Part shown: piece after piece, positions 372 to 63,359 of the stretch
How positions within the stretch are numbered: the stretch's first letter is position 1
Layout of the letters: each line of letters begins with the position of its first letter
Assembly (NCBI GenBank): GCA_012295275.1
Contig: CM022668.1
Span: 682,001-746,000, forward strand
From: Chrysomallon squamiferum
Lineage: Eukaryota; Animalia; Mollusca
Reading direction: 5' to 3'
DNA length: 64,000 nucleotides
Program-made: the position numbers and the translations under genes
The notes under the pieces: model-generated
The model's database searches: none
Told to the model about the DNA's origin: nothing
The model's input: only the letters and a program-made list of their open reading frames with translations

Positions 372-1248
372 GAGGTTTCAAGAGGGTTAAAACATTTTGT
401 ACTAAAAAAGATAAGAAGGATAAAGGTAAGGAAATAAGTGGAAACTAAAGATGCTGTATTTATGTATATATTGATATTACCATATTATACATTTATATAT
501 ATGAACTGGTGTGGCTCTGTGTGTAAGTCAGTGTTTGACATCAAACATTTTGAGCATATCCCAGTTGGATACAAACATTTCAGAATCATATATCTGACTG
601 TAAGGTATGATTACATGGCTGATGTTCAAAGGTCAAGCAAACCAATTTTTAGTTTTTTAAGTTTAAATATGGCCGAATTAGTTGAAAACATTTTATAATG
701 GTTACTTTGCCTTTCTGTGTCTTTGTCAACTTAATCAGTAGGCCTAAGGAACACGTAGACTGTTTCACATCATTACTGGAATACCAGTTCATTCAGACTA
801 ATATAACATTTGCGGTTTCAGTTAGGCGGTTGTGATCAAATTGTTATTACCCATCAAATATTGGTTACAAGCTAAAACATACTGTTACTTGACTTTGCCT
901 GCAAATAATATCTATCATTGCTTCAGCAAAAAGTAAAAATTCAGATATTATAACATATCCAGCTGGCATACTGATATTTTGATCTCTGGCACCCAAAAAT
1001 AAAATCTCGGATACTGGGTAAACATTTCTCAAACACTTTACATGCATTAATTAAGACTGCTATTTATTTGTTGATGTATGTGTTTGATGGATACAGGCTG
1101 TTACGTGACCAAGGTTATTAGTTTACCTAAAGAGTGTTGTAATTACAAGTAAAACAAAACTAGATTATCATCAGTGTGCTTGAGGTTTTGTGTGGTTATT
1201 TGATCTATATATATATATATATGTGGTGTGTATGTATGAATACATTCA

Positions 1249-1279
<31 letters not shown>

Positions 1280-2067
1280 CATACATACATACATACATAC
1301 ATACATACATACATACATACATACATACATACATTGTTGTTTATACATACATACAGTATACATACAGTTTCATACATAGGTTGTGTTTTTGTTTATTGTT
1401 TCTATATATTGTGTTTACATACATACATTGTGTTTTTTTGTTGTTTTCTAGTATAGGTTTTTGTTTTTGTTGTTGTTTCTAGTATAATACAGTTGTTGTT
1501 TCTGTAACTTGGGATAAGTTTTTGTTGTTGTTTTTTTTTGTTGTTGTTTCTAGTATAGGTTGTGTTTATAACGTGGAATAATGGGTTTTTTTTTGTGTTT
1601 TTGTTGTTGTTTCTAGTATAGGTTGTGTTTTTGTTGTTGTTTCTATGCATGGTTGAAAGATTTGACCCATTGTTTTTTATGCAGGGTGAAAAGATTAGGA
1701 CTCATTAATTTCTTTACCAAGCAGGATATTCTTTGTATTATTTAAAATAAAATAAAATTTATAAATATCTGAAAATATAGTGTTCCCATAAAAATTCTAA
1801 AATATATGGTTTTTAAATAAAAGTATTCTAAAGTTTTGTTAATTTGTAGGATATTGAGAAAATGTGGAGGTTATTTTTCTTTTCTTCTCATTTAAGAGGA
1901 AAATATAATTAACAACTCTTCTGATTTTGCTATTCAGGTAAGACGAAGGTGATCAACATAGTGAACAATGGAGGAACTCAGTATGTTCAAACTGAAAAGA
2001 ACCAAAAACTGATATATAAGGTATTAGAGCAATTTGTTCTTTCTTCTTTCTTTTCATTTTCTTTTTC

Positions 2068-2098
<31 letters not shown>

Positions 2099-5000
2099 TT
2101 TTTTTTAATTTTTTAATTTTTTGTTCTCTTTTTTAAGTTTGCTTTGGATGGTTTGGTGATAATAAAAATGATTTAATGTTGATTATTAATATAAAATAAT
2201 AATAATGACCACTGTATAGATAACTAACAATGATAGTATATATACATATAATGATTTATACATAGAAACACAGAGATACTACAAGTACTATAATTCCCTT
2301 TTATTTTGTTTATATACATATTACATTTACTAACTTTATAACTGTTTCAAACTTCAGACTTGTGATGGTGACACTAAGGAGCAAACATTATCTGAGGTAT
2401 TTTAATTCATATTTTTCTGTTACTGATACTTTCCAGTTTACAAATTGTTAAATCATTTTTTGGCAAATAAACATTTACACACCAATACATACACACAGAG
2501 AGACACCTATATATCATTATCATAGTTAAAAATAAATTCAGTTCATACATACAGACTTATATTTTTATTTACTTAAATCACTTTAATTTATTTTTCAGCC
2601 TTTGTTGCCTGTTAATCATGATAAACAGACAAGCACAGTAAGTTTTCAAGTAAGAAAACTCAAAATAGTGTTACCAGATACTCAGAATATTGTTTATGAG
2701 TTACATTAAATACTGTTTATCACTTACTCAAAATGTTATTAATTAATCATTGAAATAGCACTGTCAGTTACTCAAAACAGATACTACCAGGTAATCAATA
2801 TACTGTTTATTAATTACTCAAAATACTATTTGTTAGATAATCAAAATACTATTATCAGATACTCAAAATACTGGTTATCAGTTATTCAAGTAATTATTTT
2901 TTATCAGATGTTCAAAATGCTGTTTATCATTACTCAAACCAAAATTTAGTCATTACTCAGAATATTATTTAATAGTAAATTACTGAGTTAATAAAAATAG
3001 TACTTTATCTACTACATGAAATATTAATCAAAATACCATTTTCCTACAGGTACTGCTATTCATTATATTTCAGACTGTAAAAATAATGTTTCATATTAAT
3101 GAGCATTGAAGTAGTTTCTGAGCTATTACTCAAAATACCATGTTATGAGTTCACTCAGAACAGACATTACCATTTGCTCAAAACCAGTTTCATATTACAT
3201 TTCAAGAGCTGACTTTTTGTTTTTTTTAGAGTTGTATGTGACTCAGTTGTTAGAGATATCTGTAACTAAACTTAGTTGTCTGTGACTTAGTTGTTAGAGA
3301 TATCTGTAACTAAACTTAGTTGTCTGTGACTGTTGTTAGAGATATCTGTAACTAAACTTAGTTGTCTGTGACTGTTGTTAGAGATATCTGTAACTAAACT
3401 TAGTTGTCTGTGACTTAGTTGTTAGACATATCTGTAACTAAACTTAGTTGTCTGTGACTTAGTTGTTAGAGATATCTGTAACTAAACTTAGTTGTCTGTG
3501 ACTTAGTTGTTAGAGATATCTGTAACTAAACTTAGTTGTCTGTGACTTAGTTGTTAGAGATATCTGTAACTAAACTTAGTTGTCTGTGACTGTTGTTAGA
3601 GATATCTGTAACTAAACATAGTTGTCTGTGACTTAGTTGTTAGAGATATCTGTAACTAAACATAGTTGTCTGTGACTTAGTTGTTAGAGATATCTGTAAC
3701 TAAACATAGTTGTCTGTGACTTGGTTGTTAGAGATATCTGTGACTTAGTTCTTAGAGATATCTGTAACTAAACTTAGTTGTCTGTGACTGTTGTTAGAGA
3801 TATCTGTAACTAAACATAGTTGTCTGTGACTTAGTTGTTAGTGACTTGTTGTTAAAGATATCTGTAACTAAACTTAGTTGTCTATGACTTAGTTGTTAGA
3901 GATATCTGTAACTAAACTTAGTTGTCTCTGACTGTTGTTAGAGATATCTGTAACTAAACTTAGTTGTCTGTGACTGTTGTTAGAGATATCTGTAACTAAA
4001 CTTAGTTGTCTGTGACTTAGTTGTTAGAGATATCTGTAACTAAACTTAGTTGTCTGTGACTGTTGTTAGAGATATCTGTAACTAAACTTAGTTGTCTGTG
4101 ACTCAGTTGTTAGAGTTGTATATGATTCAGTTGTTAGAGTTGTATGTGACTCAGTTGTTAGAGTTGTATGTGACTCAGTTGTTAGAGTTGTGATGTGACT
4201 CAGTTGTTAGAGTTGTATGTGACTCAGTTGTTAGAGTTGTGTGATGACTCAGTTGTTAGAGCTGTATATGACTCAGTTGTTAGAGTTGTATATGACTCAG
4301 TTGTTAGAGTTGTTTGACTCTGTTGTTAGAGTGTATGTGACTCATTTGTTAGAGTTGTATATGACTCAGTTGTTAGAGTTGTTTGACTCTGTTGTTAGAG
4401 TTGTGTGTTACTCATTTGTTAGAGTGTATGTGACTCAGTTGTTAGAGTTGTATGTGACTCAATTGTTAGAGTTGTATGTGACTCAACTGTTAGAGTTGTA
4501 TATGACTCAGTTGTTAGAGTTGTTTGACTCTGTTGTTATAGTGTATGTGACTCATTTGTTAGAGTTGTATGTGACTCAGTTTTTAACATTGTACAAAACA
4601 TGGGCAGTCTGACTGAAGTCAAATTACAGTACTGATGATTACTACCAATATCCAACATGTAAAGAAAATACTGCACTTTGAGGATCATAGTATAACAATA
4701 AATTTATAGCATAGCATTAAGTTTGTGGTACACATCAGTTGTTACATTCTGACTACAAATACTAACAAAGAGGCATAACCAATTAACAGTCAAGAAAGAC
4801 ATGTTCTGCTTTCTAAAGTTAATTTTAGGACGATTTATCCGTATTTTCTACCTATTACCAGTATGCATACTTATATACACATAGATAACATTTCTAAAAA
4901 CACACGTCTTGGGATAGACATACATATAAATAGACATGGAAACACACAGATACTACAGATACTACAGCTCACTTTTTTTTTTACCTATATGTTTACTGAT

Positions 5001-5141
5001 ATATTTACTAACTTTATAACTGTTTTAAACTTCTGACTTGTGATGGCGACACTAATGAGCAAACATTATTAAAGGTATTTTAACTTATATTTTATTGTAC
5101 CTGATACTTTCCAGTTTACAAATTGTTAAATAGTGTTTGTA

Positions 5142-5178
<37 letters not shown>

Positions 5179-5369
5179 GTATATCATCATAAATAAAAAA
5201 TAAAATCAGTTAATACATACAGAGAGAGAGAGAGAACGCTAACAAATACACATACATACACATTAAATAATTAGATTGTTAAATTTTGATTAGTGTCTGC
5301 TACATGATGGTAATTAAGTTATTTCTATTTCAGGTTCCTACATTTGGAGGAAATATATTTATAACTTGA
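372..5369 (+). CDS. TNFR-superfamily receptor paralog, copy 1: 3' (cytoplasmic) exons only; 5' part lies upstream of the window
   Basis: AG/GT-bounded, phase-compatible exons homologous to copy 2: 372-425 (GGFKRVKTFCTKKDKKDK), 1938-2020 (GKTKVINIVNNGGTQYVQTEKNQKLIYK), 2358-2396 (TCDGDTKEQTLSE), 2599-2637 (PLLPVNHDKQTST), 5334-5369 (VPTFGGNIFIT*). The stop codon is at the same position as in copy 2. Confidence 0.75.
1250..1334. repeat. (TACA)n microsatellite
   Basis: Direct perfect tetranucleotide run; it produces the MYVC/HTYI artefact ORFs. Confidence 0.95.
3228..4585. repeat. Intronic minisatellite: 42-44 bp unit (3240-4100) switching to a 24 bp unit GTTAGAGTTGTATGTGACTCAGTT (4100-4585)
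   Basis: Units read directly from the sequence. It lies in the last large intron of TNFR copy 1. Confidence 0.95.
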
Positions 5370-6749: not shown

Positions 6750-8838
6750 AAATAATTATATTATTGTGCTATTAAGGTATACAGTTTATGAAAATGTCCG
6801 TAACATACTGATTATTTACCTATAAACCTTACTTTCATACGGTATAACATCTCGGAATTAATAGTTTCCTGGAACCGCCGCTATTCATATTCCTCAAAAA
6901 TGAATTGTTGGAATTCTTCCAAGCAGCCTTTTTACCACTGCCTCTTTCTTTTTGAATGTGCTATAAAAATAAAAACAACAACAACAACAATAACAATAAC
7001 AACAACAACAACAGTAACTTAATAAAAAGAGTTACTCTAAAATCTACTTACTGTTTTGTTTTTTTATATTCTTAATATTAAAATATTCTGCTACCGCTAA
7101 TCTATCATTCATTCAATCATCCTTTCATACTACTGCTATTACTGCTGGTGGTAATACTATGGCTTTCACTACTATAACTACTGCTGCTATTACTACTACT
7201 ACTACTAGTTCTACAGCTACTATATTGCTACTACCAGAAGAACTACAACTACTAATAATAATTTTCATCAACGACAATGGCACACCCGTTCCCCTTTTCA
7301 AAATCTTCGATCTGACTGGATACCTTCTTTTTTACATATTTTGAGTTTCTGTCGCAAGCAGCGAAACACTCGGCTATGGTGTCGTCTATGGTGAAGTTTT
7401 GTACCAGTGCATCAATGTCCGATATCATCGCACACGTCAGCGGTTTCTGGTCAGAATGTCGTTGTCGCAGAGCCTGAATTGCAAGCATATCTAAAAGAAA
7501 GAAAGAATGAATAAATTGGTAACTGGTAATAAAGGAATGATTAGATGAATAAAAGAATGAAAGCTAGATGAATAAAACAGCAAATTAATAAATGAGCGAA
7601 AGAAAAATATAAATGAGAAAAACAGTGAATTTATAAGTTTAAATGAATACTTGAGAAAATGAACAAAGGGATGAATAAATTTAGTTATCAACACATCAGT
7701 TCTATTCAGTATTCACTGTGAGTGTAGACAGCAAACTCGCTCGAAACACAACCACTCGAGATCAAAAGAAGAAAGGAGAAAAAGTATTCGACAAAAGTGT
7801 CCAGAAGCATTGGTTGTAATAAACTAAAATACACTGAAATAAAATAATGTTTGTTAGAGGATTTAGTTTCGACCTTTATTTATTTCAAATTATTAGTACT
7901 GCTGTTACTACAACTATTACTACTACTACTACTCTATTATTTCTGCTACTACTCATATTCCTACTCCTACTGCTACTACTACTATTAATAATAACAATAA
8001 CAACAACGGCATCAGCAGCAACAATAATAACAACAAGAGTAAAACTGGAAACATATTAAAAAGAAGAAGAAAAAAAAAAACGAATTACAAAAAATAAATA
8101 AATGGAAAAATTATACTTACCTAGCAATGCTTCGGGATTCCTATTCTGTTTCAAAGTGGGACGTTCCATCTCTAGATGGTCCTTCTTTCTTTATCGTGTA
8201 TCTGTTAATATAATTCCAAATTACAATACATTTAATATCAGAAACAGCAACTGTAGGAAATAGAGTACTGGCGGTACTGTGGTGGTAATACAAGATATAG
8301 TTGTAATATTAGTTTGTCTGTAATAGCTATATAGCTCAGTAATACTGGTGACCGTAGTAGAAATAATAGTACTATTAGTAGTAATAGTAGTCGTCTTCTT
8401 CTTCTTTACACATGTAACTCTACACATTAAACAAACATAGACATGCTAAAATACGAAAAATATTGTGCAAACACAAATATACATTTAAAAAACTGCAGAG
8501 AATTAAATGGATATAGAGAGAAAAATAGGTACCCAGACAGACATATATAGAGTATATATTTTTATATTAAAAATACATACCTACATATATATATACACAC
8601 ATACATACAAGCATACATACACATCCACATACATTCACGCATACATGCATACAAACATACACACACATATACATACTTACATACATACATACATACAAAA
8701 GTTAAAGAAAACAAAGTAAAGTTAAATAACAATAATAACAACAACAACAACAACAACAATAATAACAATAATAATAACAATAACAACAACAATAATAATA
8801 CTAATAATAATAATAATAACAGTAATAATAATAATAAT

Positions 8839-8881
<43 letters not shown>

Positions 8882-9640
8882 TAGGTCGAGAATCCTTTAT
8901 CCGGAATGCTTGGGACCGATTGTGTTTCGGATTTTCGAATACAAGGAGATAGCATGAGAACAGAATCTACGTCTAACTATGAATTCTATTTAATTTTCAT
9001 ATACAGTTTATACAGATAGATGCAAGATTATTTAACTAATATTTTTAATAATTTTGTGCATAAAATGACGTTTGTATGTGCACAAAAGTCCGAAAACTGA
9101 CAGATATTATTATTTCATGTCATCGGAAAAGTTTCTGATTTCGAAATTCCGGATGAGGAATCTTCAACTCATAATAATAATAATAGTAAAGAATAAACAC
9201 AGTAATGAGTACAATATTAATAATGAAATATTTTGTGAGTGACGTACAACAAACGCGTCACACAGTTAAAACAGTGCTAAGTGAGAATGATCTTGTTCAC
9301 ATTTGATATACTTCACGACGACTTTTACCTAAGAAGTTAAATTTATTGTTGTTTCTGTCCAAGAGGTTTTGTCGTCCGCATCTGCAGTGCGAGCGAATGG
9401 TTCCGTGCCTTCGAGTTTCGTCGTCACTGGACTTTGCTCTCCCGAATATTGTTTATCTCCAGTACATACGGCAACAGGATATTTATTCCTAAATGCATAA
9501 ATATAAACACACACATACATCCATACTATAAGTATAAATCTCTAACAATTAACAAGAATCAAGTTAAATGGAATGTCATGAACGTACCTGGATTTTGAAA
9601 ACTTGTTTTGTAAAATTTCTTAAATCTATTTTATGCCTTG
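5540..9640 (-). pseudogene. Decayed multi-exon gene of unknown family between the two TNFR copies
   Basis: Minus-strand AG/GT-bounded exon-like blocks at ~9588-9640, ~9328-9488, 8121-8201 (ATG at 8169, MERPTLKQNRNPEALL), 7324-7490 (DMLAIQALRQRH...SKYVKKK, phase-compatible with the previous exon), 6833-6960 (128 nt, needs a frameshift and has stops) and ~5550-5812 (SDIDDFP-like repeats). TATA-like TTTATAAA near 9670. Confidence 0.5.
8882..9170. mobile_element. Tigger/pogo-like MITE remnant
   Basis: Imperfect terminal inverted repeats (AGGTCGAGAATCCTTTATCCGGAA ... TTCCGGATGAGGAATCTTCAACT). They resemble, from recall, CAGGTTGAGYATCCCT-type Tigger ends. A similar end, CAGGTTGAGCATCC, occurs near 50079. 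Confidence 0.55.
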
Positions 9641-12929: not shown

Positions 12930-15900
12930 ATGCAATCAGTGATGTTTGTCCAGACAAAATGGAAGAGTTGTTCAGGTGAAATAGTCTGTGTATTGTTTGT
13001 TGTAGTAGTTTTGTGTGTTGAGAACTTGGATTGTGTCAATGTGTTAGGTTTAGACTACTGCCCAGCTGTAGGAACACAACACTACAAGGGTCTGGAGTGG
13101 AAATTTTGTCAGAAGACTGAGAGACTGCATTGTCAGGAGTCTAGTGATTCCAGCGTTATTTCATTTTGTCACCAGCCACGAGATTGTGCTCCAGGTCAGT
13201 ACTGTGTATCTACTTCTTTTTGTCAAAGTATCGATAATAACAAGTCACTTTAGGTTATGTGACTGACTAACTCAGATGGTGCTGAGAAATATTCGCCTAC
13301 AATAAATTAGTCTGGTTAATTAATTAATTAAAATTCATGAGTTTTAGCAACTTGTTTAGAAATACAATACAGGTTTAGAACTCATAAAATGCTTCATTTT
13401 GATACATAATACATGTATAGTGGACTGAAGGTATAAGACATATTCAGTGTTTATCGTGCAAAATGACAGAAATAAATCACACTTTGTCCAAATAACTGCA
13501 GATTTTATTCTGATAACAATTTGTAACTTTTTTCATATCAATACTATCAAAGAGATTCTGGTGTCATTTTAAAAGTAATTTTTTTGTTCTTTCTAATGAG
13601 GTATAATGTTTGAGGAAATTAATAATTTTGAAAATTTTGTCACGTACCTACATATAAAATAGAGCATACAGAAACAGAATAACCATTTGTCCCTCCTTCA
13701 GACTTCAACAAAAATAACACAAAATATAGTTGCCTAATATGGTAATGGTAGTAGGAAAAAAATGGCACCCGGAAGAAATGACACTGTGCAGATTTGGAAA
13801 AAATGGCACCTTATTTTTTTTTTCTGTATAGTTGCTTTGATAAAAAAAATAAAAGTACTTTTGAAAATACAGTTTATTCAAGAAATAGTGTTACATACAT
13901 GCATATTAATATATAGCATCACTTAGCCACTTGATTTTGCTTAACAAAGTGTACAATATTATATCAGAGTTTAATATTACACATATACACATATATATAC
14001 ACAGAAATGAATGGGTACATATTTACTGACTTTAATTATGCATACCAGTTAATTATGAGATGTTGGATGGTACTGAAGTAAGCTATTTAGGTTAATAATC
14101 AGTATGTTACCGGTATTTTCCAAAACTGTTCCTTAATAGCACAGTAATATAATTTATTATAATAAACAAAACAAACAAAAAATTATACAAGAGGTATAAA
14201 CTAAATTGTGATTTGTGGTTTAATAAGTTAGGATCAATTTTCTAAGTTAAATAAACATAGCAAACAGTATCTCTAACTATCACTGTGAAAACTTTCCATA
14301 GCTTGATCAAGGCCCTATTAGGGTATGGTTAAGGGCCCTACTGTGTGAGATAAAAACAGTTTACTGTCATAACACACACATACACAGATATATGTTTTTA
14401 CTATTTTATTTGCAGGATTGTATGCTAGACTCTATCCAGATAGGACTATTAAGTGTGAATTGTGTCCTGCCGGGTCCTATCAGCCAGTGGGGGGAGCAAC
14501 ATACTCGTTTATCATTCCTGAGTGCAGCCACCGTCACAGGACATGTGAAACGAAGGGCAAAAAGATGTGTAAGGAGGGTACACCTATAGAGGACACAAAG
14601 TGTAGCTGTGACTATCAACAACAGTATGCCCCATCACCAGAAAACTGTCACTGTTTTACCTTCAATGAACCATGCAAGTGCTTAAAAAGTAATTGTGAAG
14701 GGAAACTCAATTCAAGTGAGTTTTATCTTGTAAAACCTGATTATTAAAAATAGGCAAACTCCATGTTGAAGACAAAGTTCTGTACTGGAAAAAGATTTAC
14801 ACTGATATTATTAACCTTTACTGAAATAAAATAATAATGTGTGACACATAAATGTGATGTAATAAATAGTCTAAATACATTTTCTTTTAAATAACTGGCT
14901 TGTTGTATTAAAAACATTTTTATATGTATACATTACTGTTTTATTAATTTCTGTTATCAACTTGAAAATGTTTATAGTTTGATGTTAGTTGTCCAAAAAT
15001 AAATAAATAAAATAAAACCAATTTTAACATGTACTGGTTTTTAAATTTAGTTTTTGTTTATTCAAAGGTTTTCACTGTGTTCTTGATACTACAACAACTG
15101 AAAAAACAGCTGAAAAATCAACAGCAGAGACTGAAAGGTTTGTTGTTGTTTTTTTGTATGTGTGTGTTTATGCATGCATGAATATGTACATATTTTGTTG
15201 TAGATGAAGTGATAGAATTAATGTGTACATTGTTTCTGTAGATATAGGTTTGTATATAGTTTATGTATGTAATGTGTGTTAAGATAGTTAATTTATATAC
15301 AGACATGTGATTAAGATATTGAAAAATACCATTTTCATAGTAAATATTTTAGAATTTGTTGACTGACATTTTTTTCTTCTTTTTCTTCTTCTTCAGGACA
15401 ACCAGAAAGCCATCAGTATCTGGTAATATCAAACTTCTTTACCTTTTGTTATCTCTCTTTTTTATTTTGTATCTGTCTGTCAGTCTGTCTATTGATCTCT
15501 GTTTGTCTGTCTATATATCTATTTGTCTGTGTGCATGTAAACAGACATCATGTTGAATGTTAATAAATGTCAAATGTTTTGTTGGTTGAATGTGTAAGAG
15601 GATTTGACAGAAACTGATGGCACAACTACTAATAACATGAACAATGACTGGATGATGATACATTCTTACTTAAATATATGACATTAATTTTTAGTGTTAT
15701 TAAATATCTTATCGCAAACCCTTGATGACTGTGAGCAGCAGTATCATCTACATGTTTTAAGAAATCAAGGTGTAGGCTAATTCCTGCTCCAACAAGAAAT
15801 ATAAAGCAGATGTGCCTATCTTAGTGAATTCTTTTTATTTTATTTTATTTGTTTTCCACACAACTTGTTATCACCATTGTAGGAAATACCTGAGAGTGTT

Positions 15901-18676
15901 GACTTGAATACATCATAGTCAGTCTTAATGCAAAATGTTAACTCAGTTAATGCAATGTTCATTTCATGTTAACAAAGAAAACTCTACTGACAGATGTATG
16001 CAGTAAATGTGGGAGTTGTTCAAAGTGTTTAATTTGTTGTGAGACTGTTTACAAATAAAATTATTTTAATTACAGAAATGATGGCATGCTTTTGATCAAA
16101 AATATTTTTAAAATATTACCAGTAAACAATGTTTTTCAAAAATAACATCAGCCCCAATGATCACAAATTGGTCAAGACTGGTAAAAAGAGAACATTTTCC
16201 CAGCACTGATATTATAAAATATAGTTACTTTTTTTAATAGTTTGTAATATTTATTAGAAATAGACAAATCACTTTCTTCATGTTCTGCTTTTATGCAAAA
16301 AAACATTCAGTTCTTTTCAGTTCATTTTTTAACAGGAATTTGATAATTACCTTTTTTAATTATTTATTATTTATGTTGAAAACATTTTTCAATTAATATT
16401 TAAATACTTCTTCAATTTTATTTAGAAACAGAAGAAAGAACTAATACTGTTGGTCTGATTGCTGGTATCATCACTGTTATTGTTGTTGCATTTATCACTT
16501 TTGGAGTAATATGTTATAAAAAAGGTAAGAATATCTAACTTCTTAATTAAACATTTATTTTGTAACTAGTCCATTAGATGTGTGCCAAAAATGGCATATC
16601 CTGTAACAAAATGGCTGCTTCTGGTTAGACTTGAGAGCAGGGCAATCTGAATATCTACATAAAGTTCTGATGATTTTGGGTAAAAAAAAGTGCATAAAAT
16701 GTATTATTGGTGAACAAAAATGTGCCTTCAGAATGACATAATTATGATGTTCCAGAGAGACAATGAGCATGCTAAAAAGCAAAGGATGATTAAAATTACT
16801 GCACAAATTGAATACTCAACACTCTCATTTCAGTTAAGATCACTTGAATTTAATTTAAGGTTTCTGCCTGAATCCCTTTGGTACCTTTTCTCAGATCTCA
16901 AAGTTGTTTTTTCAGAAGGTTTAAGAAAAAATGGCCACCTGTGTGAAGTTTGTTTAGATTCAGAGAAACATCACTTACAAAGGTTTTCTTTTCAAACCAG
17001 GTTTGAATGGGTTCAGAAATAAATATTGAATACATGTCTGACAAATATGGATACGAAAGTATCTCATGAATAAAATTGAAGACTGTGATACTCTACACAA
17101 CTGGTTCATTATGGAGTAATACTGCTTGTGTTACTGTTGATGCTGAACATGAAGATTCGGAATAAGTGTAACAAGAGGTTCTTGAAAATATAAGCATTTA
17201 TGCCATCCCCCTCTGTGCCTCTAATGATGGGTCAGCATTGTATATGTAAAAGTGAATGAAACTGCTTGTGTTCTAACATGTAAATGATTGAATAACAGCA
17301 CTGAGATAAGAGATGATCTGAACAGAGGCAGGAAAGAAAGTTGACCTAAGTTCATACATTACAGTGGTGATCATTTGTCCAGATAAATTGTGTCATTCAT
17401 GTCAATTACTGCTGTCAGCAGTGCCACACAAAAATTTGGAAAGCATATTTTGGTTCTTTAATTTCACTTTCCTATCTGCCAGTAATTCATTTATGGCCTC
17501 TGCAGGACTTGGTGGCAGCCATTTTGAATTTATACAAATTTTGTACTTGCAGTTGAAACACTTCCGTCAACACATTTTTAAAATATCAGAGTAGATATAA
17601 TGTAAAAATATTTACTTTTTAAATTTCAGGAGGTTTCAAGAGGATTAAAACATTTTGTGCTAAAAAAGATAAGAAGGATAAAGGTAAGGAAATAAGTAAA
17701 AATTCAGATATTATAACATATCCAGCTGGCATACTGATATTTTGATCTCTGGCACCCAAAAATAAAATCTCGGATCATTTGTCACCATAAATTGTGTGTT
17801 TCATGTCACCTGCATCTTATCTGCTGTCTGCGATGCCACACAAAAATTTTGAAGGAACATTTTTGTTCTTTAATGACACTGTCCTATCTGCCAGTAATAC
17901 ATTTATGGGGTCTAGAGCAGGCTGTTTAAGAGATAATGGTCTCTACAGGACTTGCTGGCAGCCATTTTGAATTTATATAAATAGTGTACTTCCAGTTTAA
18001 TGGCTTCCGTCAGCATGTTTTTTAAATATCAGAATATGCATAATGTTAAAATATTTATGTTTCAAATTTCAGGAGGTTTCAAGACAGACAAAGCATCTGA
18101 TTCTAGAAAAGGTAAGAAGGATAATGGTAAGGAAATAAGTGGAAACTAAAGATGCTGTATTTATGTATATATTGATATTACCATATTATACATTTATATA
18201 TATGAACTGGTGTGTCTCTGAGTGTAAGTCAGTGTTTGACACCAAAAATGTATTTTAGTATAAATATCTTAAAATATAGTGTTGCCATAAAAATTCTCTA
18301 TTAAAAAAATTGTAAAGTATTGTTAATTTGTAACGAAACATTTCTAGGATATTGAAAAAATGTGGATGTTATTTTTCTTTTTTCTTATTTAAGAGGAAAA
18401 TATAATTAACAGTTGTTGTAATTTTGATATTCAGATAAAGAGACAATGATCAACATAGTGAACAGTAGCGGAACACAGTGTGTTCAGATAGGAAACTACT
18501 CACAAATTAGAATTACGGTATCAGAGGAATTTGTTTCTTTGTTCTTCTTTTCTTTTTCTTTTTAGTTGTCTTTTTTAAGTTTGCTTTGGATAGTTTAGCG
18601 ATAATAACTTATTTAATGTTGATTATTATGATAAAAATAATGATAATGACAATTGTACAGATAATTATCAGTGATA

Positions 18677-18710
<34 letters not shown>

Positions 18711-21700
18711 ATGTAAACGATTTATACATAAAAACACACAGATACTACAGATACTACAACTCACTTTTTTCATTGCCTACACATTTACTGATATATTTAC
18801 TAACTTTATAACTGTTTCAAACTTCAGACTTGTGATGGTGACACTAAGGAGCAAACATTATCTGAGGTATTTTAATTCATATTTTACTGTTACTGATACT
18901 TTCCAGTTTACAAATTGTTAAATAATTTGTTGGTAAATAAACATTTACATACCCATACATACACACAGAGAGACACCTATATATCATTATCATAGTTAAA
19001 AATAAATTCAGTTTATACATGCAGGCTTATATTTTTATTTACTTAAATCACTTTAATTTATTTTTCAGCCTTTGCTGTGTGTTGATCATGATAAACAGAC
19101 AAGCACAGTAAGTTTTCAAGTAAGAAAACTCAAAATAGTGTTACCAGATACTCAGAATATTGTTTATGAGTTACATTAAATACTGTTTATCACTTACTCA
19201 AAATGTTATTAATTAATCACTGAAATAGCACTGTCAGTTACTCAAAACAGATACTATCAGGTAATCAATATACTGTTTATTAATTAGTCAAAATACTATT
19301 TGTTAGATAATCAAAATACTTGTTATCAGTTATTCAAGTAATTATTTTTTTATCAGATGTTCTAAATGCTGTTTATCATTACTGAAACCAAAATTTAGTC
19401 ATTACTCAGAATATTATTTAATAGTAAATTACTGAGTTAATAAAAATAGTACTTTATCTATTACATGAAATATTGCTCTGAATACTATTTTTTTAATGTA
19501 CTGCTATTCGATATATTTTTCATGTGCTTATTACTGATTGTAAAAATAATATTTCATATTAATGAGCACTGAAATAGTTTCTGATCTATTACTCAAAATA
19601 CCATGTTATGAGTTCACTCAGAACAGACATCACCGTTTGCTCAAAATCAGTTTCATCTTACATCCATCACAGTTCGAGAGTTACTGACGTATGTTACTCA
19701 GTTGTTATAGTTGTGTGAGTTGTGTGTTACTCAGTTGTTAGAGTTGTATGTGACTCAGTTGTTAGAGTTGTGTGAGTTGTGTGTTACTCATTTGTTAGAG
19801 TTGTATGTTACTCAGTTGTTAGAGTTGTGTGAGTTGTGTGTGACTCAGTTGTTAGAGTTGTGTGAGTTGTGTGTTACTCACTTGTTAGAGTTGTATGTTA
19901 CTCAGTTGTTAGAGTTGTGTGAGTTGTATGTTACTCAGTTGTTAGAGTTGTATGTTACTCAGTTGTTATAGTTGTGTGAGTTGTGTGTTACTCAGGTGTT
20001 AGAGTTGTATGTTACTCAGTTATTAGAGTTGTATGTAACTCAGGTGTTAGAGTTGTATGTAACTCAGGTGTTAGAGTTGTATGTTACTCAGGTGTTAGAG
20101 TTGTATGTAACTCAGTTGTTAGAGTTGTATGTTACTCAGTTGTTAGAGTTGTATGTTACTCAGGTGTTAGATTGTATGTTACTCAGTTGTTAGAGTTGTA
20201 TGTTACTCAGTTATTAGAGTTGTATGTGACTCAGATGTTAGAGTTGTATGTTACTCAGGTGTTAGAGTTGTATGTAACTCAGTTGTTAGAGTTGTATGTT
20301 ACTCAGTTGTTAGAGTTGTATGTTACTCAGGTGTTAGATTGTATGTTACTCAGTTGTTAGAGTTGTATGTTACTCAGTTATTAGAGTTGTATGTGACTCA
20401 GATGTTAGAGTTGTATGTTACTCAGTTGTTAGAGTTGTGTGTAACTCAGGTGTTAGAGTTGTAAGTTACTCAGTTATTAGAGTTGTATGTAACTCAGGTG
20501 TTAGAGTTGTATGTAACTCAGGTGTTAGAGTTGTATGTTACTCAGGTGTTAGAGTTGTATGTTACTCAGTTATTAGAGTTGTATGTAACTCAGGTGTTAG
20601 AGTTGTATGTTACTCAGTTGTTAGAGTTGTATGTAACTCAGTTTTTAGAGTTGTATGTTACTCAGTTGTTAGAGTTGTATGTTACTCAGGTGTTAGATTG
20701 TATGTGACTCAGTTGTTAGAGTTGTATGTTACTCAGTTATTAGAGTTGTATGTAACTCAGGTGTTAGAGTTGTATGTTACTCAGTTATTAGAGTTGTATG
20801 TAACTCAGGTGTTAGAGTTGTATGTAACTCAGTTGTTAGAGTTGTATGTTACTCAGGTGTTAGAGTTGTATGTAACTCAGTTGTTAGATTGTATGTTACT
20901 CAGGTGTTAGAGTTGTATGTTACTCAGTTATTAGAGTTGTATGTAACTCAGGTGTTTGAGTTGTATGTTACTCAGTTATTAGAGTTGTATGTTACTCAGT
21001 TATTAGAGTTGTATGTTACTCAGTTGTTAGAGTTGTATGTGACTCAGTTGTTAGAGTTGTATGTTACTCAGTTGTTAGAGTTGTATGTTACACAGGTGTT
21101 AGAGTTGTATGTAACTCAGTTGTTAGAGTTGTATGTTACTCAGTTGTTAGAGTTGTATGTTACACAGGTGTTAGAGTTGTATGTAACTCAGGTGTTAGAG
21201 TTGTATGTTACTCAGTTATTAGAGTTGTATGTGACTCAGTTGTTAGAGTTGTATGTGACTCAGTTGTTAGAGTTGTATGTGACTCAGTTGTTAGAGTTGT
21301 ATGTTACTCAGTTGTTAGAGTTGTATGTGACTCAGTTGTTAGAGTTGTATGTGACTCAGTTGTTAGAGTTGTATGTTACTCAGTTGTTAGAGTTGTATGT
21401 TAGAGTTATGTTACTCAGTTGTTAGAGTTGTATGTTACTCAGTTGTTAGAGTTGTATGTGACTCAGTTGTTAGAGTTGTATGTGACTCAGTTGTTAGAGT
21501 TGTATGTGACTCAGTTGTTAGAGTTGTATGTGACTCAGTTGTTAGAGTTGTATGTGACTCAGTTGTTAGAGTTGTATGTTAGACAGGTGTTAGAGTTGTA
21601 TGTTACTCAGTTGTTAGAGTTGTATGTTAGACAGGTGTTAGAGTTGTATGTTAGACAGGTGTTAGAGTTGTATGTTAGACAGGTGTTAGAGTTGTATGTT

Positions 21701-22354
21701 AGACAGGTGTCAGAGTTGTATGTTAGACAGGTATTAGAGTTGTATGTTAGACAGGTGTTAGAGTTGTATGTTACTCAGTTGTTGGAGTTGTATGTGACTC
21801 AGTTGTTAACATTGCCTATGACTTCCAAAACATGGGCAGTCTGAGTGAAGTCAAATTACAGGGATGATGACTATCAATATCCAGCAACATACTGCACTTT
21901 GAGGATCACAAAGTAACAATAAACTCATCGCATTAATTTTGTGGTATGACAGCAATTGTTTCATTTTGACTGCAGACAACAACAAAGAGGCATAAACAAC
22001 ACAGCCTAGAAATATATGTTCTGATTTGTAAAGTTAATTTTAGAACTATTTATCCATGTTTTCCATCGATTACTGGTATACATACACACATATACATGCC
22101 TAACATTTCTAGAAACACAGGTGCCATAGATACAAATATAAATTGACCAGGTTATCACACATTGAAAACACCCAGATATTACAGATACTATAACTCACTA
22201 CATGTTTACTGATATATTTACTAACTTTATAACTGTTTTAAACTTCAGACTTATTGTGAAGCTGATGAGCAAACATTATTAAAGGTATTTTGAATTATAT
22301 TTTATTGTCACTGATACTTTCCAGTTTACAAATTATTAAATAATTTTTAGTAAA

Positions 22355-22408
<54 letters not shown>

Positions 22409-23088
22409 AACACTGGCAAAGAAACATAAACAATTAACACAATCAAGAAATATTTTTTCTTATTTGTAAAATTCATTTTAGAACTAGATACCCATTTTTT
22501 CCACCTTTTACCAGTATACATACACACATACACATACATAACGTTTCTAAAAACACAGGTGTCATAGATACACAAATAAACTGACCAGGTTTTCACACAT
22601 AAAAAACACAGATACTACAGATACTATAACTCACTACATGTTTACTGATATAGTTACTAATTTTATAACTGTTTCAAACTTCAGACTTGTGATGGTGACA
22701 TAAAGGAGCAAACATCATTAAAGGTATATTAATTTATATTTTATTTTCACTGATACTTAGCAGTTTACAAATTGATAAATATTTTTTCTAAACACACACA
22801 CACACACACACACCAATATAGCATTATTATAAATAAAAATTAATTCAGTTTATATGTAATATGGACACACACAAACACACACACACACACACACCAATAT
22901 AGCATTATTGTAAATAAAAATTAATTCAGTTTATATGTAATATGGACACACAAACACAATGATTAAATATACATACATTCATACATGTCAGTTAATTAGA
23001 TTTTTAAATTTTGTTTAGTGTCTGCCACATGAACTTAATAACATAATTTCAGGTTCCTACATTTGGAGAAAATGCAGTTATTACTTGA
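12930..23088 (+). CDS. TNF-receptor-superfamily type I membrane protein, copy 2 (~379 aa): CRDs, TM helix, cytoplasmic RHIM, no death domain
   Basis: Hand-spliced exons: 12930-13194 (start uncertain: 12930, 12942, or acceptor at 12953), 14416-14715, 15068-15137, 15397-15422, 16426-16524, 17630-17683, 18073-18126, 18435-18517, 18828-18866, 19069-19107, 22249-22284, 22685-22723, 23053-23088. All introns are GT-AG with compatible phases; the total is 1140 nt and open. Hydrophobic N-terminus IVCVLFVVVVLC; TNFR-type CRD CELCPAGSYQP...C..HRTC..EGT...DTKC; Thr-rich stalk; TM VGLIAGIITVIVVAFITFGVICY followed by KK. Confidence 0.85.
14416..14715 (+). CDS. Cysteine-rich domain exon of TNFR copy 2
   Basis: Matches ORF 14418-14747. 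Phase 1-1 exon (TGCAG|GA ... TCAA|GTGAG) with the TNFR CRD cysteine spacing. Confidence 0.9.
16426..16524 (+). CDS. Transmembrane exon of TNFR copy 2
   Basis: TTTAG|AAACA ... AAAG|GTAAG; encodes ETEERTNTVGLIAGIITVIVVAFITFGVICYKK. Confidence 0.88.
16560..17625. mobile_element. Probable decayed DNA-transposon sequence in a TNFR intron
   Basis: Higher-complexity, broken coding-like sequence (ORF 16720-17022) with inverted motifs CAAAATGGCTGC (~16607) and GCAGCCATTTTG (~17515). No intact transposase is visible. Confidence 0.3.
18435..18517 (+). CDS. RHIM-encoding exon of TNFR copy 2
   Basis: TTCAG|AT ... ACG|GTATC; encodes DKETMINIVNSSGTQCVQIGNYSQIRIT, with the VQIG core at 18482-18493. Confidence 0.8.
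19688..21810. repeat. 24-bp intronic minisatellite (GTTAGAGTTGTATGTKACTCAGKT), ~2.1 kb
   Basis: Direct tandem units. Because the period is a multiple of 3, it produces the YVTQLLEL artefact ORFs. Confidence 0.97.
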
Positions 23089-38058: not shown

Positions 38059-54396
<16,338 letters not shown>

Positions 54397-61774: not shown

Positions 61775-62450
61775 ACACAATACAATTTCTTTTCAGATAT
61801 CCCAGTTACAATTCGTCCGAAATTTCTAAAAGGTTATTTCAGATATTAAAACGTGTTCTATGTAAAATATATTTTATACAATAAACTCATCAGATATGGT
61901 TACAGTGTTGACGGTACATATACCATGTTTACTTTAAATAGCTGCATTTATCTTTGCTATTATTTTCTGTACCTTTATCGATATTATCTCTGAATAGTTA
62001 TTTACATTTATCAAAATCACTCTTCTATATTTTTTATACCTTTCTGTATTTTATCGGCACTACATTTCTTCACAAATGTCTACGTTACTTCTCAGTAAAT
62101 ATATCTAGAATTCCTTTCTATAACGTGCCAGACGTTCCTGTTATGTACAGGTAAATGGTCATGTGCAAATAAACGAAATATACGATTTTTTAATTTATGT
62201 CAGCGAACAACGTGCTTCCGTAAACTGACAACAAAACTTCAGTAATTTAGGGAGCAATTATTCGTTTCTGCACGATCTGTCTACTTTTGCTTTACCTGTG
62301 TATCTATTCTTTACTTTACATATTTACTGTATATTTAATTCATTAATGTTATTTTTCAGTTAGTTTCTGCCGTGCAGATAATGATTTCTGGATCATACGT
62401 CAGTTCGATCGTTATGTGATTCTGGGAAACATATTATCAAACAAACAGCA

Positions 62451-63359
62451 ATGGCAAAACGTGGCAAAGGACCAAAGAGTTATTCATCTAGCTATACTAC
62501 TTACTATGCCAGTTCGGCTTACGTATCGAAAACTCCATCGACGTATACACAATATATATCTGGTTATGGATCGGATTATGGATCCTATCCTAGATCAGAT
62601 TATGGATCGTATACCGGATCAGATTATGGACCGTATCCCAGATCCGATTATGGATATAACTATGAACCTGATTATGGATCTAATTATGGATCTGATTATG
62701 GACCTGGTTATGGATCTGAATATGGGTCTGATTATGGATCTAATTATGGATCTGATTATGGATCTGGTTATGGATCTGGTTACGGTCCTAATAGTGGTCC
62801 TAATGAAGGTCCTGATAATGGACCTAATAGTGGTCCTGATAAAGGTCCTGATAATGGACCTGGTGGTAATGATCCAAAGAATCAAAGTACTGCATATTCT
62901 GACTACGATAGAGGCGCTCTGAATCCTAACAAACAATCCGCAAATAATTTCAGTTGCAATATATGCTGCTGTCCACCAGGTAACAGTAATTTGGTTCCTT
63001 TAGTAACCATGACGCCTCCGTCTCCTCCTGCACCTACCTATAGATACCAATATGTTGAGTGCTCACCGTCGTGTGTTGGATTACGAACTATGTGTCCACC
63101 AGTTTCCGGAGAAAACGGTCGTAAAAGTCTTCTGTCTAGCTGTTGTCCAGTCCAGAATCCGATGACAAGCAGGAACAGCGCTTATTTGGCTCTTGCCGCG
63201 GATATCATGTCCAACATTATGAAAAGGCAGATAATGTACACCTTATGTTGCTTGGACGGGGTCGCACCAACAGGAATCGACCCCAGACTTTTCGAAGATT
63301 TCTGTAAACGATATAATCCCGTTAAATTAACACCTCCTGGACAAATAAAAAAAGAGTAA
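62451..63359 (+). CDS. Uncharacterised 302-aa protein with G/S/D/Y tetrapeptide repeats, GPDN repeats and a Cys/Pro-rich C-terminus
   Basis: Uninterrupted ORF with coding-like composition. ATG in GCAATGG context, preceded by in-frame stops (62361 onward). Acceptor TTTCAG at 62359 suggests a 5' UTR intron; AATAAA signals follow the stop. Confidence 0.8.
   Translation: MAKRGKGPKSYSSSYTTYYASSAYVSKTPSTYTQYISGYGSDYGSYPRSDYGSYTGSDYGPYPRSDYGYNYEPDYGSNYGSDYGPGYGSEYGSDYGSNYGSDYGSGYGSGYGPNSGPNEGPDNGPNSGPDKGPDNGPGGNDPKNQSTAYSDYDRGALNPNKQSANNFSCNICCCPPGNSNLVPLVTMTPPSPPAPTYRYQYVECSPSCVGLRTMCPPVSGENGRKSLLSSCCPVQNPMTSRNSAYLALAADIMSNIMKRQIMYTLCCLDGVAPTGIDPRLFEDFCKRYNPVKLTPPGQIKKE

Follow-up and report, generated by a model that had tools for sequence, protein, structure and literature searches.

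Several paired leukocyte receptors (KLRC/NKG2, Ly49, PIR, Siglec-5/14, Siglec-11/16, and CD300A/C) are encoded by tandem genes that are matched by gene conversion and divergent in their transmembrane and signaling parts, the homogenization being restricted to the ectodomain (PMC3210942). In Drosophila, the membrane receptor PGRP-LC signals through a cRHIM amyloid and is restrained by its RHIM-less relatives PGRP-LF and rPGRP-LC, and by Pirk (PMC9496462). The genes for red and for green opsin have homogenized introns and a divergence peak around the functional differences in one exon, exon 5 (PMC3924837). The RHIM's core tetrad is given as (V/I)-Q-(V/I/L/C)-G and the cRHIM form as VxxG (PMC13506858). 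In vertebrate RIPK3, rapidly evolving sites surround the RHIM and the tetrad itself is conserved; a natural VQSG tetrad in RIPK3 gave no NF-kB activation and still supported cell death, and mussel RIPK1 has a RHIM (PMC12119088). Many amphioxus RHIM proteins were described by Kajava and colleagues, with transmembrane regions marked in a figure legend, and RHIM-bearing receptors of a similar kind may already have been noted there (PMC4262963). TNFR genes are numerous in the oyster (PMC4346834); in a preprint devoted to invertebrate TNFRs, the word RHIM occurs 0 times in the portion of its text available to us (10.1101/2024.07.27.603686). We found no report of a mollusc TNFR-like receptor with a RHIM in the open-access literature. 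Statements drawn from the papers cited here refer to excerpts of their text.

The locus described here resembles each of these systems in part. Like the paired leukocyte receptors it consists of tandem copies, apparently matched by conversion, with divergent transmembrane and signaling parts, but it combines a gastropod TNFR-like ectodomain with a RHIM-like tail in place of ITIM or ITAM motifs, and ligand sharing and opposite outputs are only proposed. Whereas the flies lack or replace the whole motif in PGRP-LF and rPGRP-LC, here the motif carries in-place substitutions, in a paralog under ongoing conversion and with an unrelated ectodomain. With the TNF receptor superfamily it shares a cysteine-rich ectodomain fold (predicted here) and a single transmembrane helix; unlike that family it has no Pfam TNFR hit, and its tail is too short to hold a death domain and bears a RHIM-like motif in that place. 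Vertebrate decoy TNFRs lack or truncate the death domain. As in the opsin genes there is a divergence peak in one exon under conversion, but the introns beside the exon are themselves 10–16% diverged here, and alleles of the exon vary strongly as well.

Both copies lie on the plus strand of the window, by which we mean the whole stretch of 64,000 nucleotides analyzed (Chrysomallon squamiferum, contig CM022668.1, positions 682,001–746,000). The window was compared with sequencing runs represented by DNA contigs (X1 and X3, from two studies), by RNA contigs (X8 and X9), and by contigs of a further run, X5; for the tables on the copy 2 side, this comparison covers 40 of 617 letter rows and 15 of 70 joints. 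The features are as follows.

372..425, plus strand: copy 1, 54-nt juxtamembrane exon, one unit where copy 2 has two (AG/GT ends; 2 of 54 nt differ from 17630–17683; spliced to 1938 in X9 RNA)
1938..2020, plus strand: copy 1, RHIM-like exon with the tetrad VQTE at 1985–1996 (AG/GT ends; present in X1 and X3 DNA and, spliced, in X8 and X9 RNA; no Pfam hit)
2358..2396, plus strand: copy 1, 39-nt tail exon, identical to 18828–18866 (RNA joints 2020>2358 and 2396>2599)
2599..2637, plus strand: copy 1, second 39-nt tail exon, with an alternative in-frame donor after 2649 (RNA joint, loose ends, frame)
5334..5369, plus strand: copy 1, last coding exon with stop (matched by an X9 loose end behind 2639; AG acceptor, open frame)
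12942..13194, plus strand: copy 2, first of the coding exons, encoding a predicted signal peptide and a cysteine-rich module (aligns with mollusc homologues; joined to 14416 by an X8 loose end; putative start codon)
14416..14715, plus strand: copy 2, TNFR-like cysteine-rich exon with a polymorphic patch at 14481–14555 (fold and profile searches; 10 of 11 differences in the X8 contig non-synonymous)
15068..15422, plus strand: copy 2, two Thr/Ser-rich stalk exons, 15068–15137 and 15397–15422 (AG/GT ends, open frame; joints not seen among the 15 of 70 listed)
16426..16524, plus strand: copy 2, transmembrane exon (translation with a hydrophobic stretch; an X9 RNA contig and an X3 record hold a divergent counterpart)
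17630..18126, plus strand: copy 2, two tandem 54-nt exons, 17630–17683 and 18073–18126, 24% apart (sequence comparison)
18435..18517, plus strand: copy 2, RHIM-like exon with the tetrad VQIG at 18482–18493 (11.6 bits with the Pfam RHIM family, E 0.21, against a cut-off of 20; other forms occur in X3, X5, and X8)
18828..23088, plus strand: copy 2, tail exons 18828–18866, 19069–19107, 22249–22284, 22685–22723, and the last, 23053–23088 (RNA loose ends, frames, splice ends; alternatively spliced)

Copy 2 is complete in the window, with 13 predicted coding exons from 12942 to 23088 and a longest model of 375 residues, whose layout runs from a predicted signal peptide through a cysteine-rich ectodomain and a stalk of Thr/Ser type to one transmembrane exon and a tail that is short. 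Its type I membrane topology was read directly from the N-terminal and internal hydrophobic stretches of the translation. The RNA uses 22249, 22685, and 23053 in several combinations; the full combination of tail exons is a model, with no single transcript showing all of them. For copy 1, RNA joints place an acceptor at 2599 and carry splicing onward from 2637 to the last exon at 5334–5369. The preliminary description had given both copies an intact frame and terminal stop: both frames are indeed open under the RNA-corrected model, but the stop at 2639–2641 is in frame only with an exon start at 2600; it overlaps the donor and is out of frame in the corrected model. At 5036–5074, copy 1 also has a duplicate of the 39-nt tail exon with the acceptor TG instead of AG, and the two matching duplicates of copy 2 (22249–22284 and 22685–22723) have intact splice sites and are found in RNA. 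Both last exons (5334–5369 and 23053–23088) encode TFG-x-N and, after it, hydrophobic residues; this stretch loosely resembles the latter half of the RHIM-like motif and could be a degenerate second motif.

Elsewhere in the window, exons of an E75-type nuclear receptor lie at 47261–54021 on the plus strand (the closest match is an abalone E75-like protein, 75% identical); short open stretches at about 7300–9600 on the minus strand, between the copies, look like exons of a minus-strand gene; and a 324-codon open frame at 62385–63359 on the plus strand, with Gly/Ser/Tyr/Asp repeats and a Cys-rich end, possibly encodes a structural or matrix protein.

Copies 1 and 2 belong to a gene for a gastropod receptor that passes the membrane once and has a predicted TNFR-like fold. 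Pfam returned 0 families on both ectodomain exons, with a TNFR repeat in 0 of the 20 homologues; a word-based protein search with the ectodomain exon gave 7 candidates, none of them significant, and the 2 hits of a single-sequence PDB search with the ectodomain were taken as chance. The fold model, of the 100-residue ectodomain exon only, has a pLDDT of 72. In a wide structural search with it, the top 24 of the 50 rows listed are TNFR-family chains (Z 3.7–6.1, each match weak), the family membership of some being what we take their titles to indicate; Foldseek likewise gave a weak TNFR-type match (best E 0.053), and 7 of 7 hits of a profile search were TNFR-family, also weak (E 0.19–3.7). The same exon is polymorphic: 10 of the 11 differences between the window and X8 change a residue. 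Within it, 14481–14555 holds 9 differences in 75 nt between window and X8, of which 8 are non-synonymous, and is a candidate ligand-contact region.

As the preliminary description had stated, the two genes are tandem paralogs, with the tetrad present in copy 2 (VQIG) and absent in copy 1 (VQTE). The former falls within the RHIM tetrad definition, as do 4 tetrads in total among the 127,996 six-frame codons of the window; the latter falls within neither that definition nor the cRHIM form VxxG. Pfam PF12721 scores copy 2 at 11.6 bits, below the curated cut-off of 20, and gives no hit for copy 1. With 28-residue queries and E up to 10, copy 2 had 0 sequence matches in the PDB and no solved RHIM chain was matched; the 2 matches of the copy 1 exon (a designed protein and a beta-helix adhesin) were weak and taken as chance. 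Judged by these letters, "RHIM-like" is a fair term for copy 2 and "tetrad lost" for copy 1, and we infer the copy 1 motif to be "dead."

An exhaustive homologue search gave 20 proteins, of which 10 were looked up and 7 are named, all from molluscs; the best is an uncharacterized abalone protein of matching layout, and P0045, a low-complexity false hit, was excluded from the alignments. In all three full-length abalone homologues aligned, the tail is otherwise variable and retains a hydrophobic VxxG motif; the pattern was chosen post hoc and also matched hydrophobic stretches in 4 of the 6 other proteins scanned. No tail motif of the VxxG kind was found in the shorter homologues, and neither RHIM-like exon matched the abalone alignment when the two were compared as profiles. 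The abalone tail motif suggests that the Gly state is ancestral, and thus that its loss in copy 1 is derived.

The RHIM-like exons are both 83 nt long, with AG/GT ends and equal phases, and differ at 27 of 83 nt and 17 of 28 residues; a recount again gave 3 purely synonymous codon differences. The tail exon that follows (2358–2396 vs. 18828–18866) is identical, and 1–371 differs from 17259–17629 at 3 of 371 positions. All these values agree with the preliminary description, which had called the exon a divergence hotspot. The peak is real: the exon (32.5%) exceeds the introns on both sides (49/367, 13.4%; Fisher p 8e-5), four downstream paralogous blocks (146/878, 16.6%; p 8e-4), and the three most diverged flank blocks (126/669; p 0.006), and the maximum among 1096 windows of 83 columns outside the exon is 16 differences. 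With the flanks lower than the exon, the objection that it merely belongs to a contiguous old block failed. The 0.8% block at 1–371 was, however, a misleading comparator, being a recently homogenized tract; the fair comparators are the adjoining introns (13%) and the downstream flanks (17%), so that the peak stands about 2 to 2.5-fold over background, not 40-fold, and the exon is not the sole divergent one.

Diversifying selection between the copies, which had been put forward for this exon, is not borne out: pathway counting gives 6 synonymous changes over 16.8 sites and 21 non-synonymous changes over 67.2 sites, a dN/dS of 0.84, so that amino-acid changes are not in excess. Compared with the flanking introns, both classes are raised (synonymous, 6/17, p 0.02; non-synonymous, p 0.0009), which fits an old conversion-resistant block better than a burst of amino-acid change; raised synonymous divergence is what a conversion-resistant island predicts (PMC3924837). 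The differences cluster at the ends of the exon (7/12 and 14/30 nt) around a conserved middle (6/41) that includes an 18-nt identical run (permutation p 0.007). Compensated frameshifts or small indels as the cause of the divergence received no significant support from a gapped alignment (gain 14 vs. a mean of 7.9 under the null, p 0.10). All forms of the exon that were seen have intact length, frame, and splice sites, and the adjoining introns carry 6 gap runs each.

Comparison of the window with itself gives a mosaic, with differences of 0.8% (1–371), 3.3% (426–548), 0% (2326–2400), and elsewhere 4.5%, 1.9%, and 11%; the introns touching the RHIM-like exon differ by 9.8% and 16.3%, and the four downstream blocks by 10–21%. 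Such a mosaic of near-identical and 10–20% diverged blocks is as predicted by gene conversion, which had been proposed to homogenize everything except the RHIM-like exon; this last part was overstated, as differences are also found in the transmembrane exon, in the introns next to the RHIM-like exon, and in the last exons. The single 54-nt unit of copy 1 is chimeric, 1–425 resembling the first unit of copy 2 and 426–548 the intron after the second, and shows exchange between the copies. In the comparison of 1–1012 with 17259–18249, 928–1005 again resembles the intron after the first 54-nt unit of copy 2. Long tandem minisatellite arrays (3222–4593 and 19689–21808) occupy an equal intron position and are about 74% alike between the copies.

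Copy 1 is transcribed: X8 RNA contains the joints 2020>2358 and 2396>2599, and X9 places the 54-nt exon directly before the RHIM-like exon. A break upstream, which had been named as a possible objection, does not appear as far as copy 1 can be read, that is, up to the transmembrane exon. X1 and X3 both hold the VQTE exon in their DNA contigs, with 1 other letter in either run; its presence in the DNA of two studies and in spliced RNA removes the objections that copy 1 is mis-assembled or silent. The divergence peak, with loss of the RHIM-like tetrad in an expressed paralog, is real and well supported.

Both exon types are spliced in the single RNA library X8, an observation at the level of the library, not of the cell, and X1 and X8 each hold both types; in X9 no VQIG-type contig was seen at 18467–18480, where contigs do not prove absence. 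None of the listed letters restores Ile or Gly to VQTE in any of 4 runs. The VQIG form in X8, whose pieces are tied mainly by a common depth of 20.9, differs from copy 2 of the window at no fewer than 11 of 83 nt, 10 of them non-synonymous and changing 7 residues (hand count). Against allele-like intron records (36/2696), taken from the 8 of 16 DNA records that are intronic and less than 5% different, this is an excess of non-synonymous changes (p 7e-8), and the exon still stands out against all 16 records (191/6039, p 8e-5). The ratio within the exon (10/11 non-synonymous, p 0.32) is not significant, nor is it when pooled with the ectodomain (20/22, p 0.15). An X3 DNA contig has five changes in common with the X8 VQIG form and, with only 20 differences over 18164–18654, looks like an allele of copy 2. 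X5 adds two more copy 2-type forms over the RHIM-like exon, and on the VQTE side X9 has a form with 4–5 changes at the 5' end of the exon and X1 one more. Among the forms listed, there are thus at least two further VQIG-side and at least two further VQTE-side forms across X1, X3, X5, X8, and X9, with nearly all changes non-synonymous.

The depths of X3 are 158.6 for the copy 1 exon, 67.4 for the copy 2-type exon, and 225.9 for the common stretch; contig depth gives no copy number, and these values hint that copy 2 may be present on one haplotype only. In a 211-nt X9 contig, 103 nt that were not placed on the copy 2 transmembrane exon at 80% are followed by the 54-nt exon and a copy 1-type RHIM-like exon, the lengths of these parts agreeing, and an X3 record over the transmembrane region has 58 differences; these two records, one of RNA and one of DNA, make the transmembrane exon a second divergence island. 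In the ectodomain, X8 has a single contig over 14443–14717 despite both tail types, and X3 has one contig (14515–14909) with a depth of 212, about the sum of the depths of its two RHIM-like exons; these contigs, which cannot phase ectodomain with tail, hint at an ectodomain common to both copies, that of copy 1 lying outside the window. A further X3 contig (17167–17897), of depth 174.5, leaves out 124 and 491 nt of the copy 2 sequence and may represent a third, more distant paralog with one 54-nt unit.

The two copies could be mis-assembled haplotypes of one locus, as some blocks differ by less than 2%, about the allele level seen in contigs. We consider this highly improbable: other blocks differ by 10–21% over several kilobases, X3 holds a copy 1 exon and a copy 2-type exon whose depths stand beside that of the common stretch as given above, X5 holds two copy 2-type forms, and both types are found in X1 as well as in X8. 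Among the runs compared, no read or contig was seen to span the two copies. A weakly constrained, low-complexity tail that escaped conversion by chance, its indel-rich flanks and accumulated divergence blocking exchange, would leave VQTE as drift with no regulatory role. The dN/dS of 0.84, with synonymous divergence as high as non-synonymous, agrees with such relaxed constraint, as do the unconverted adjacent introns (10–16%), a somewhat better gapped alignment (14 vs. 7.9) in which compensated indels may inflate the count, and the X3 depths, which with copy 2 on one haplotype would resemble birth-and-death turnover. We nevertheless regard relaxed constraint as unlikely, given that divergence in the exon is higher than even in those three flank blocks that are most diverged (27/83 vs. 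126/669), that its length, frame, and splice sites are intact in all forms beside introns with 6 gap runs each, and that changes at the allele level concentrate in the exon and not in its introns.

Both copies might instead signal, the exon encoding variants of a beta-arch motif that bring in different partners or evade RHIM mimics of microbes, under diversifying or balancing selection on the whole exon at both loci. Both copies preserve the motif in its N-terminal half and both ends vary, the further forms on the VQIG and VQTE sides (at least two each) differ by nearly all non-synonymous changes, the fast-evolving sites of vertebrate RIPK3 also cluster around its RHIM (PMC12119088), and the TFG-x-N stretch in both last exons could provide a second half-motif. 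Vertebrates, however, conserve the tetrad while the flanks change (PMC12119088), and the RHIM and cRHIM definitions both require the Gly that copy 1 lacks (PMC13506858); an altered specificity of this kind seems to us rather unlikely.

Our preferred reading, with a probability of about 0.45, is that of a paired receptor: the copies are homogenized by conversion except in their signaling exons, and copy 1 is the likely non-signaling partner of copy 2. Gene conversion or unequal crossing-over would keep most of both genes alike, apparently including the ectodomain, and conversion tracts over the RHIM-like and transmembrane exons would be rejected by selection, so that an old island of divergence persists there, synonymous sites included. 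Copy 2, clustered by ligand, would seed an amyloid of the RHIM type together with an adaptor like RIPK1 or Imd; copy 1, whose Thr and Glu take the place of Ile and Gly, would share the ligand and stay out of the amyloid, and could dilute receptor clusters or compete with copy 2, as rPGRP-LC and PGRP-LF do with PGRP-LC in flies, the residues around the tetrad meanwhile continuing to diversify among alleles. Against the paired reading stands the dN/dS between the copies, which is not above 1, and against a dead motif the conserved middle of the exon in copy 1 (6/41), which a dead motif need not show; by analogy, the VQSG tetrad in RIPK3, which favors a non-signaling copy 1 by its failure to activate NF-kB, also speaks against it in having kept cell death in that assay (PMC12119088). 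A much wider proposition is that gastropod TNFR-type receptors signal via a RHIM amyloid of their own, without a death domain, and that the locus is an invertebrate paired-receptor system in which ectodomains are matched by conversion, one tetrad is dead, and the flanks diversify as an amyloid-specificity code under microbial pressure; this we regard as doubtful.

The evolutionary pattern is of a known kind, and what is new is a gastropod TNFR-like receptor with a RHIM-like tail, together with the allelic variety of the exon. If the motif is inert, the locus is an ordinary fast-evolving duplicate of an immune gene. RHIM signaling in molluscs is known mainly from RIPK1-like kinases, and in a TNFR-like receptor that itself bears a RHIM-like tail the wiring would be different. 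The natural VQIG/VQTE pair and its allelic forms are a ready panel for the control of amyloid signaling by tetrad and flanks and, if the paired reading is true, the paired-receptor design, with conversion in the ectodomain and divergence in the tail, would be extended to an invertebrate TNFR-like family.
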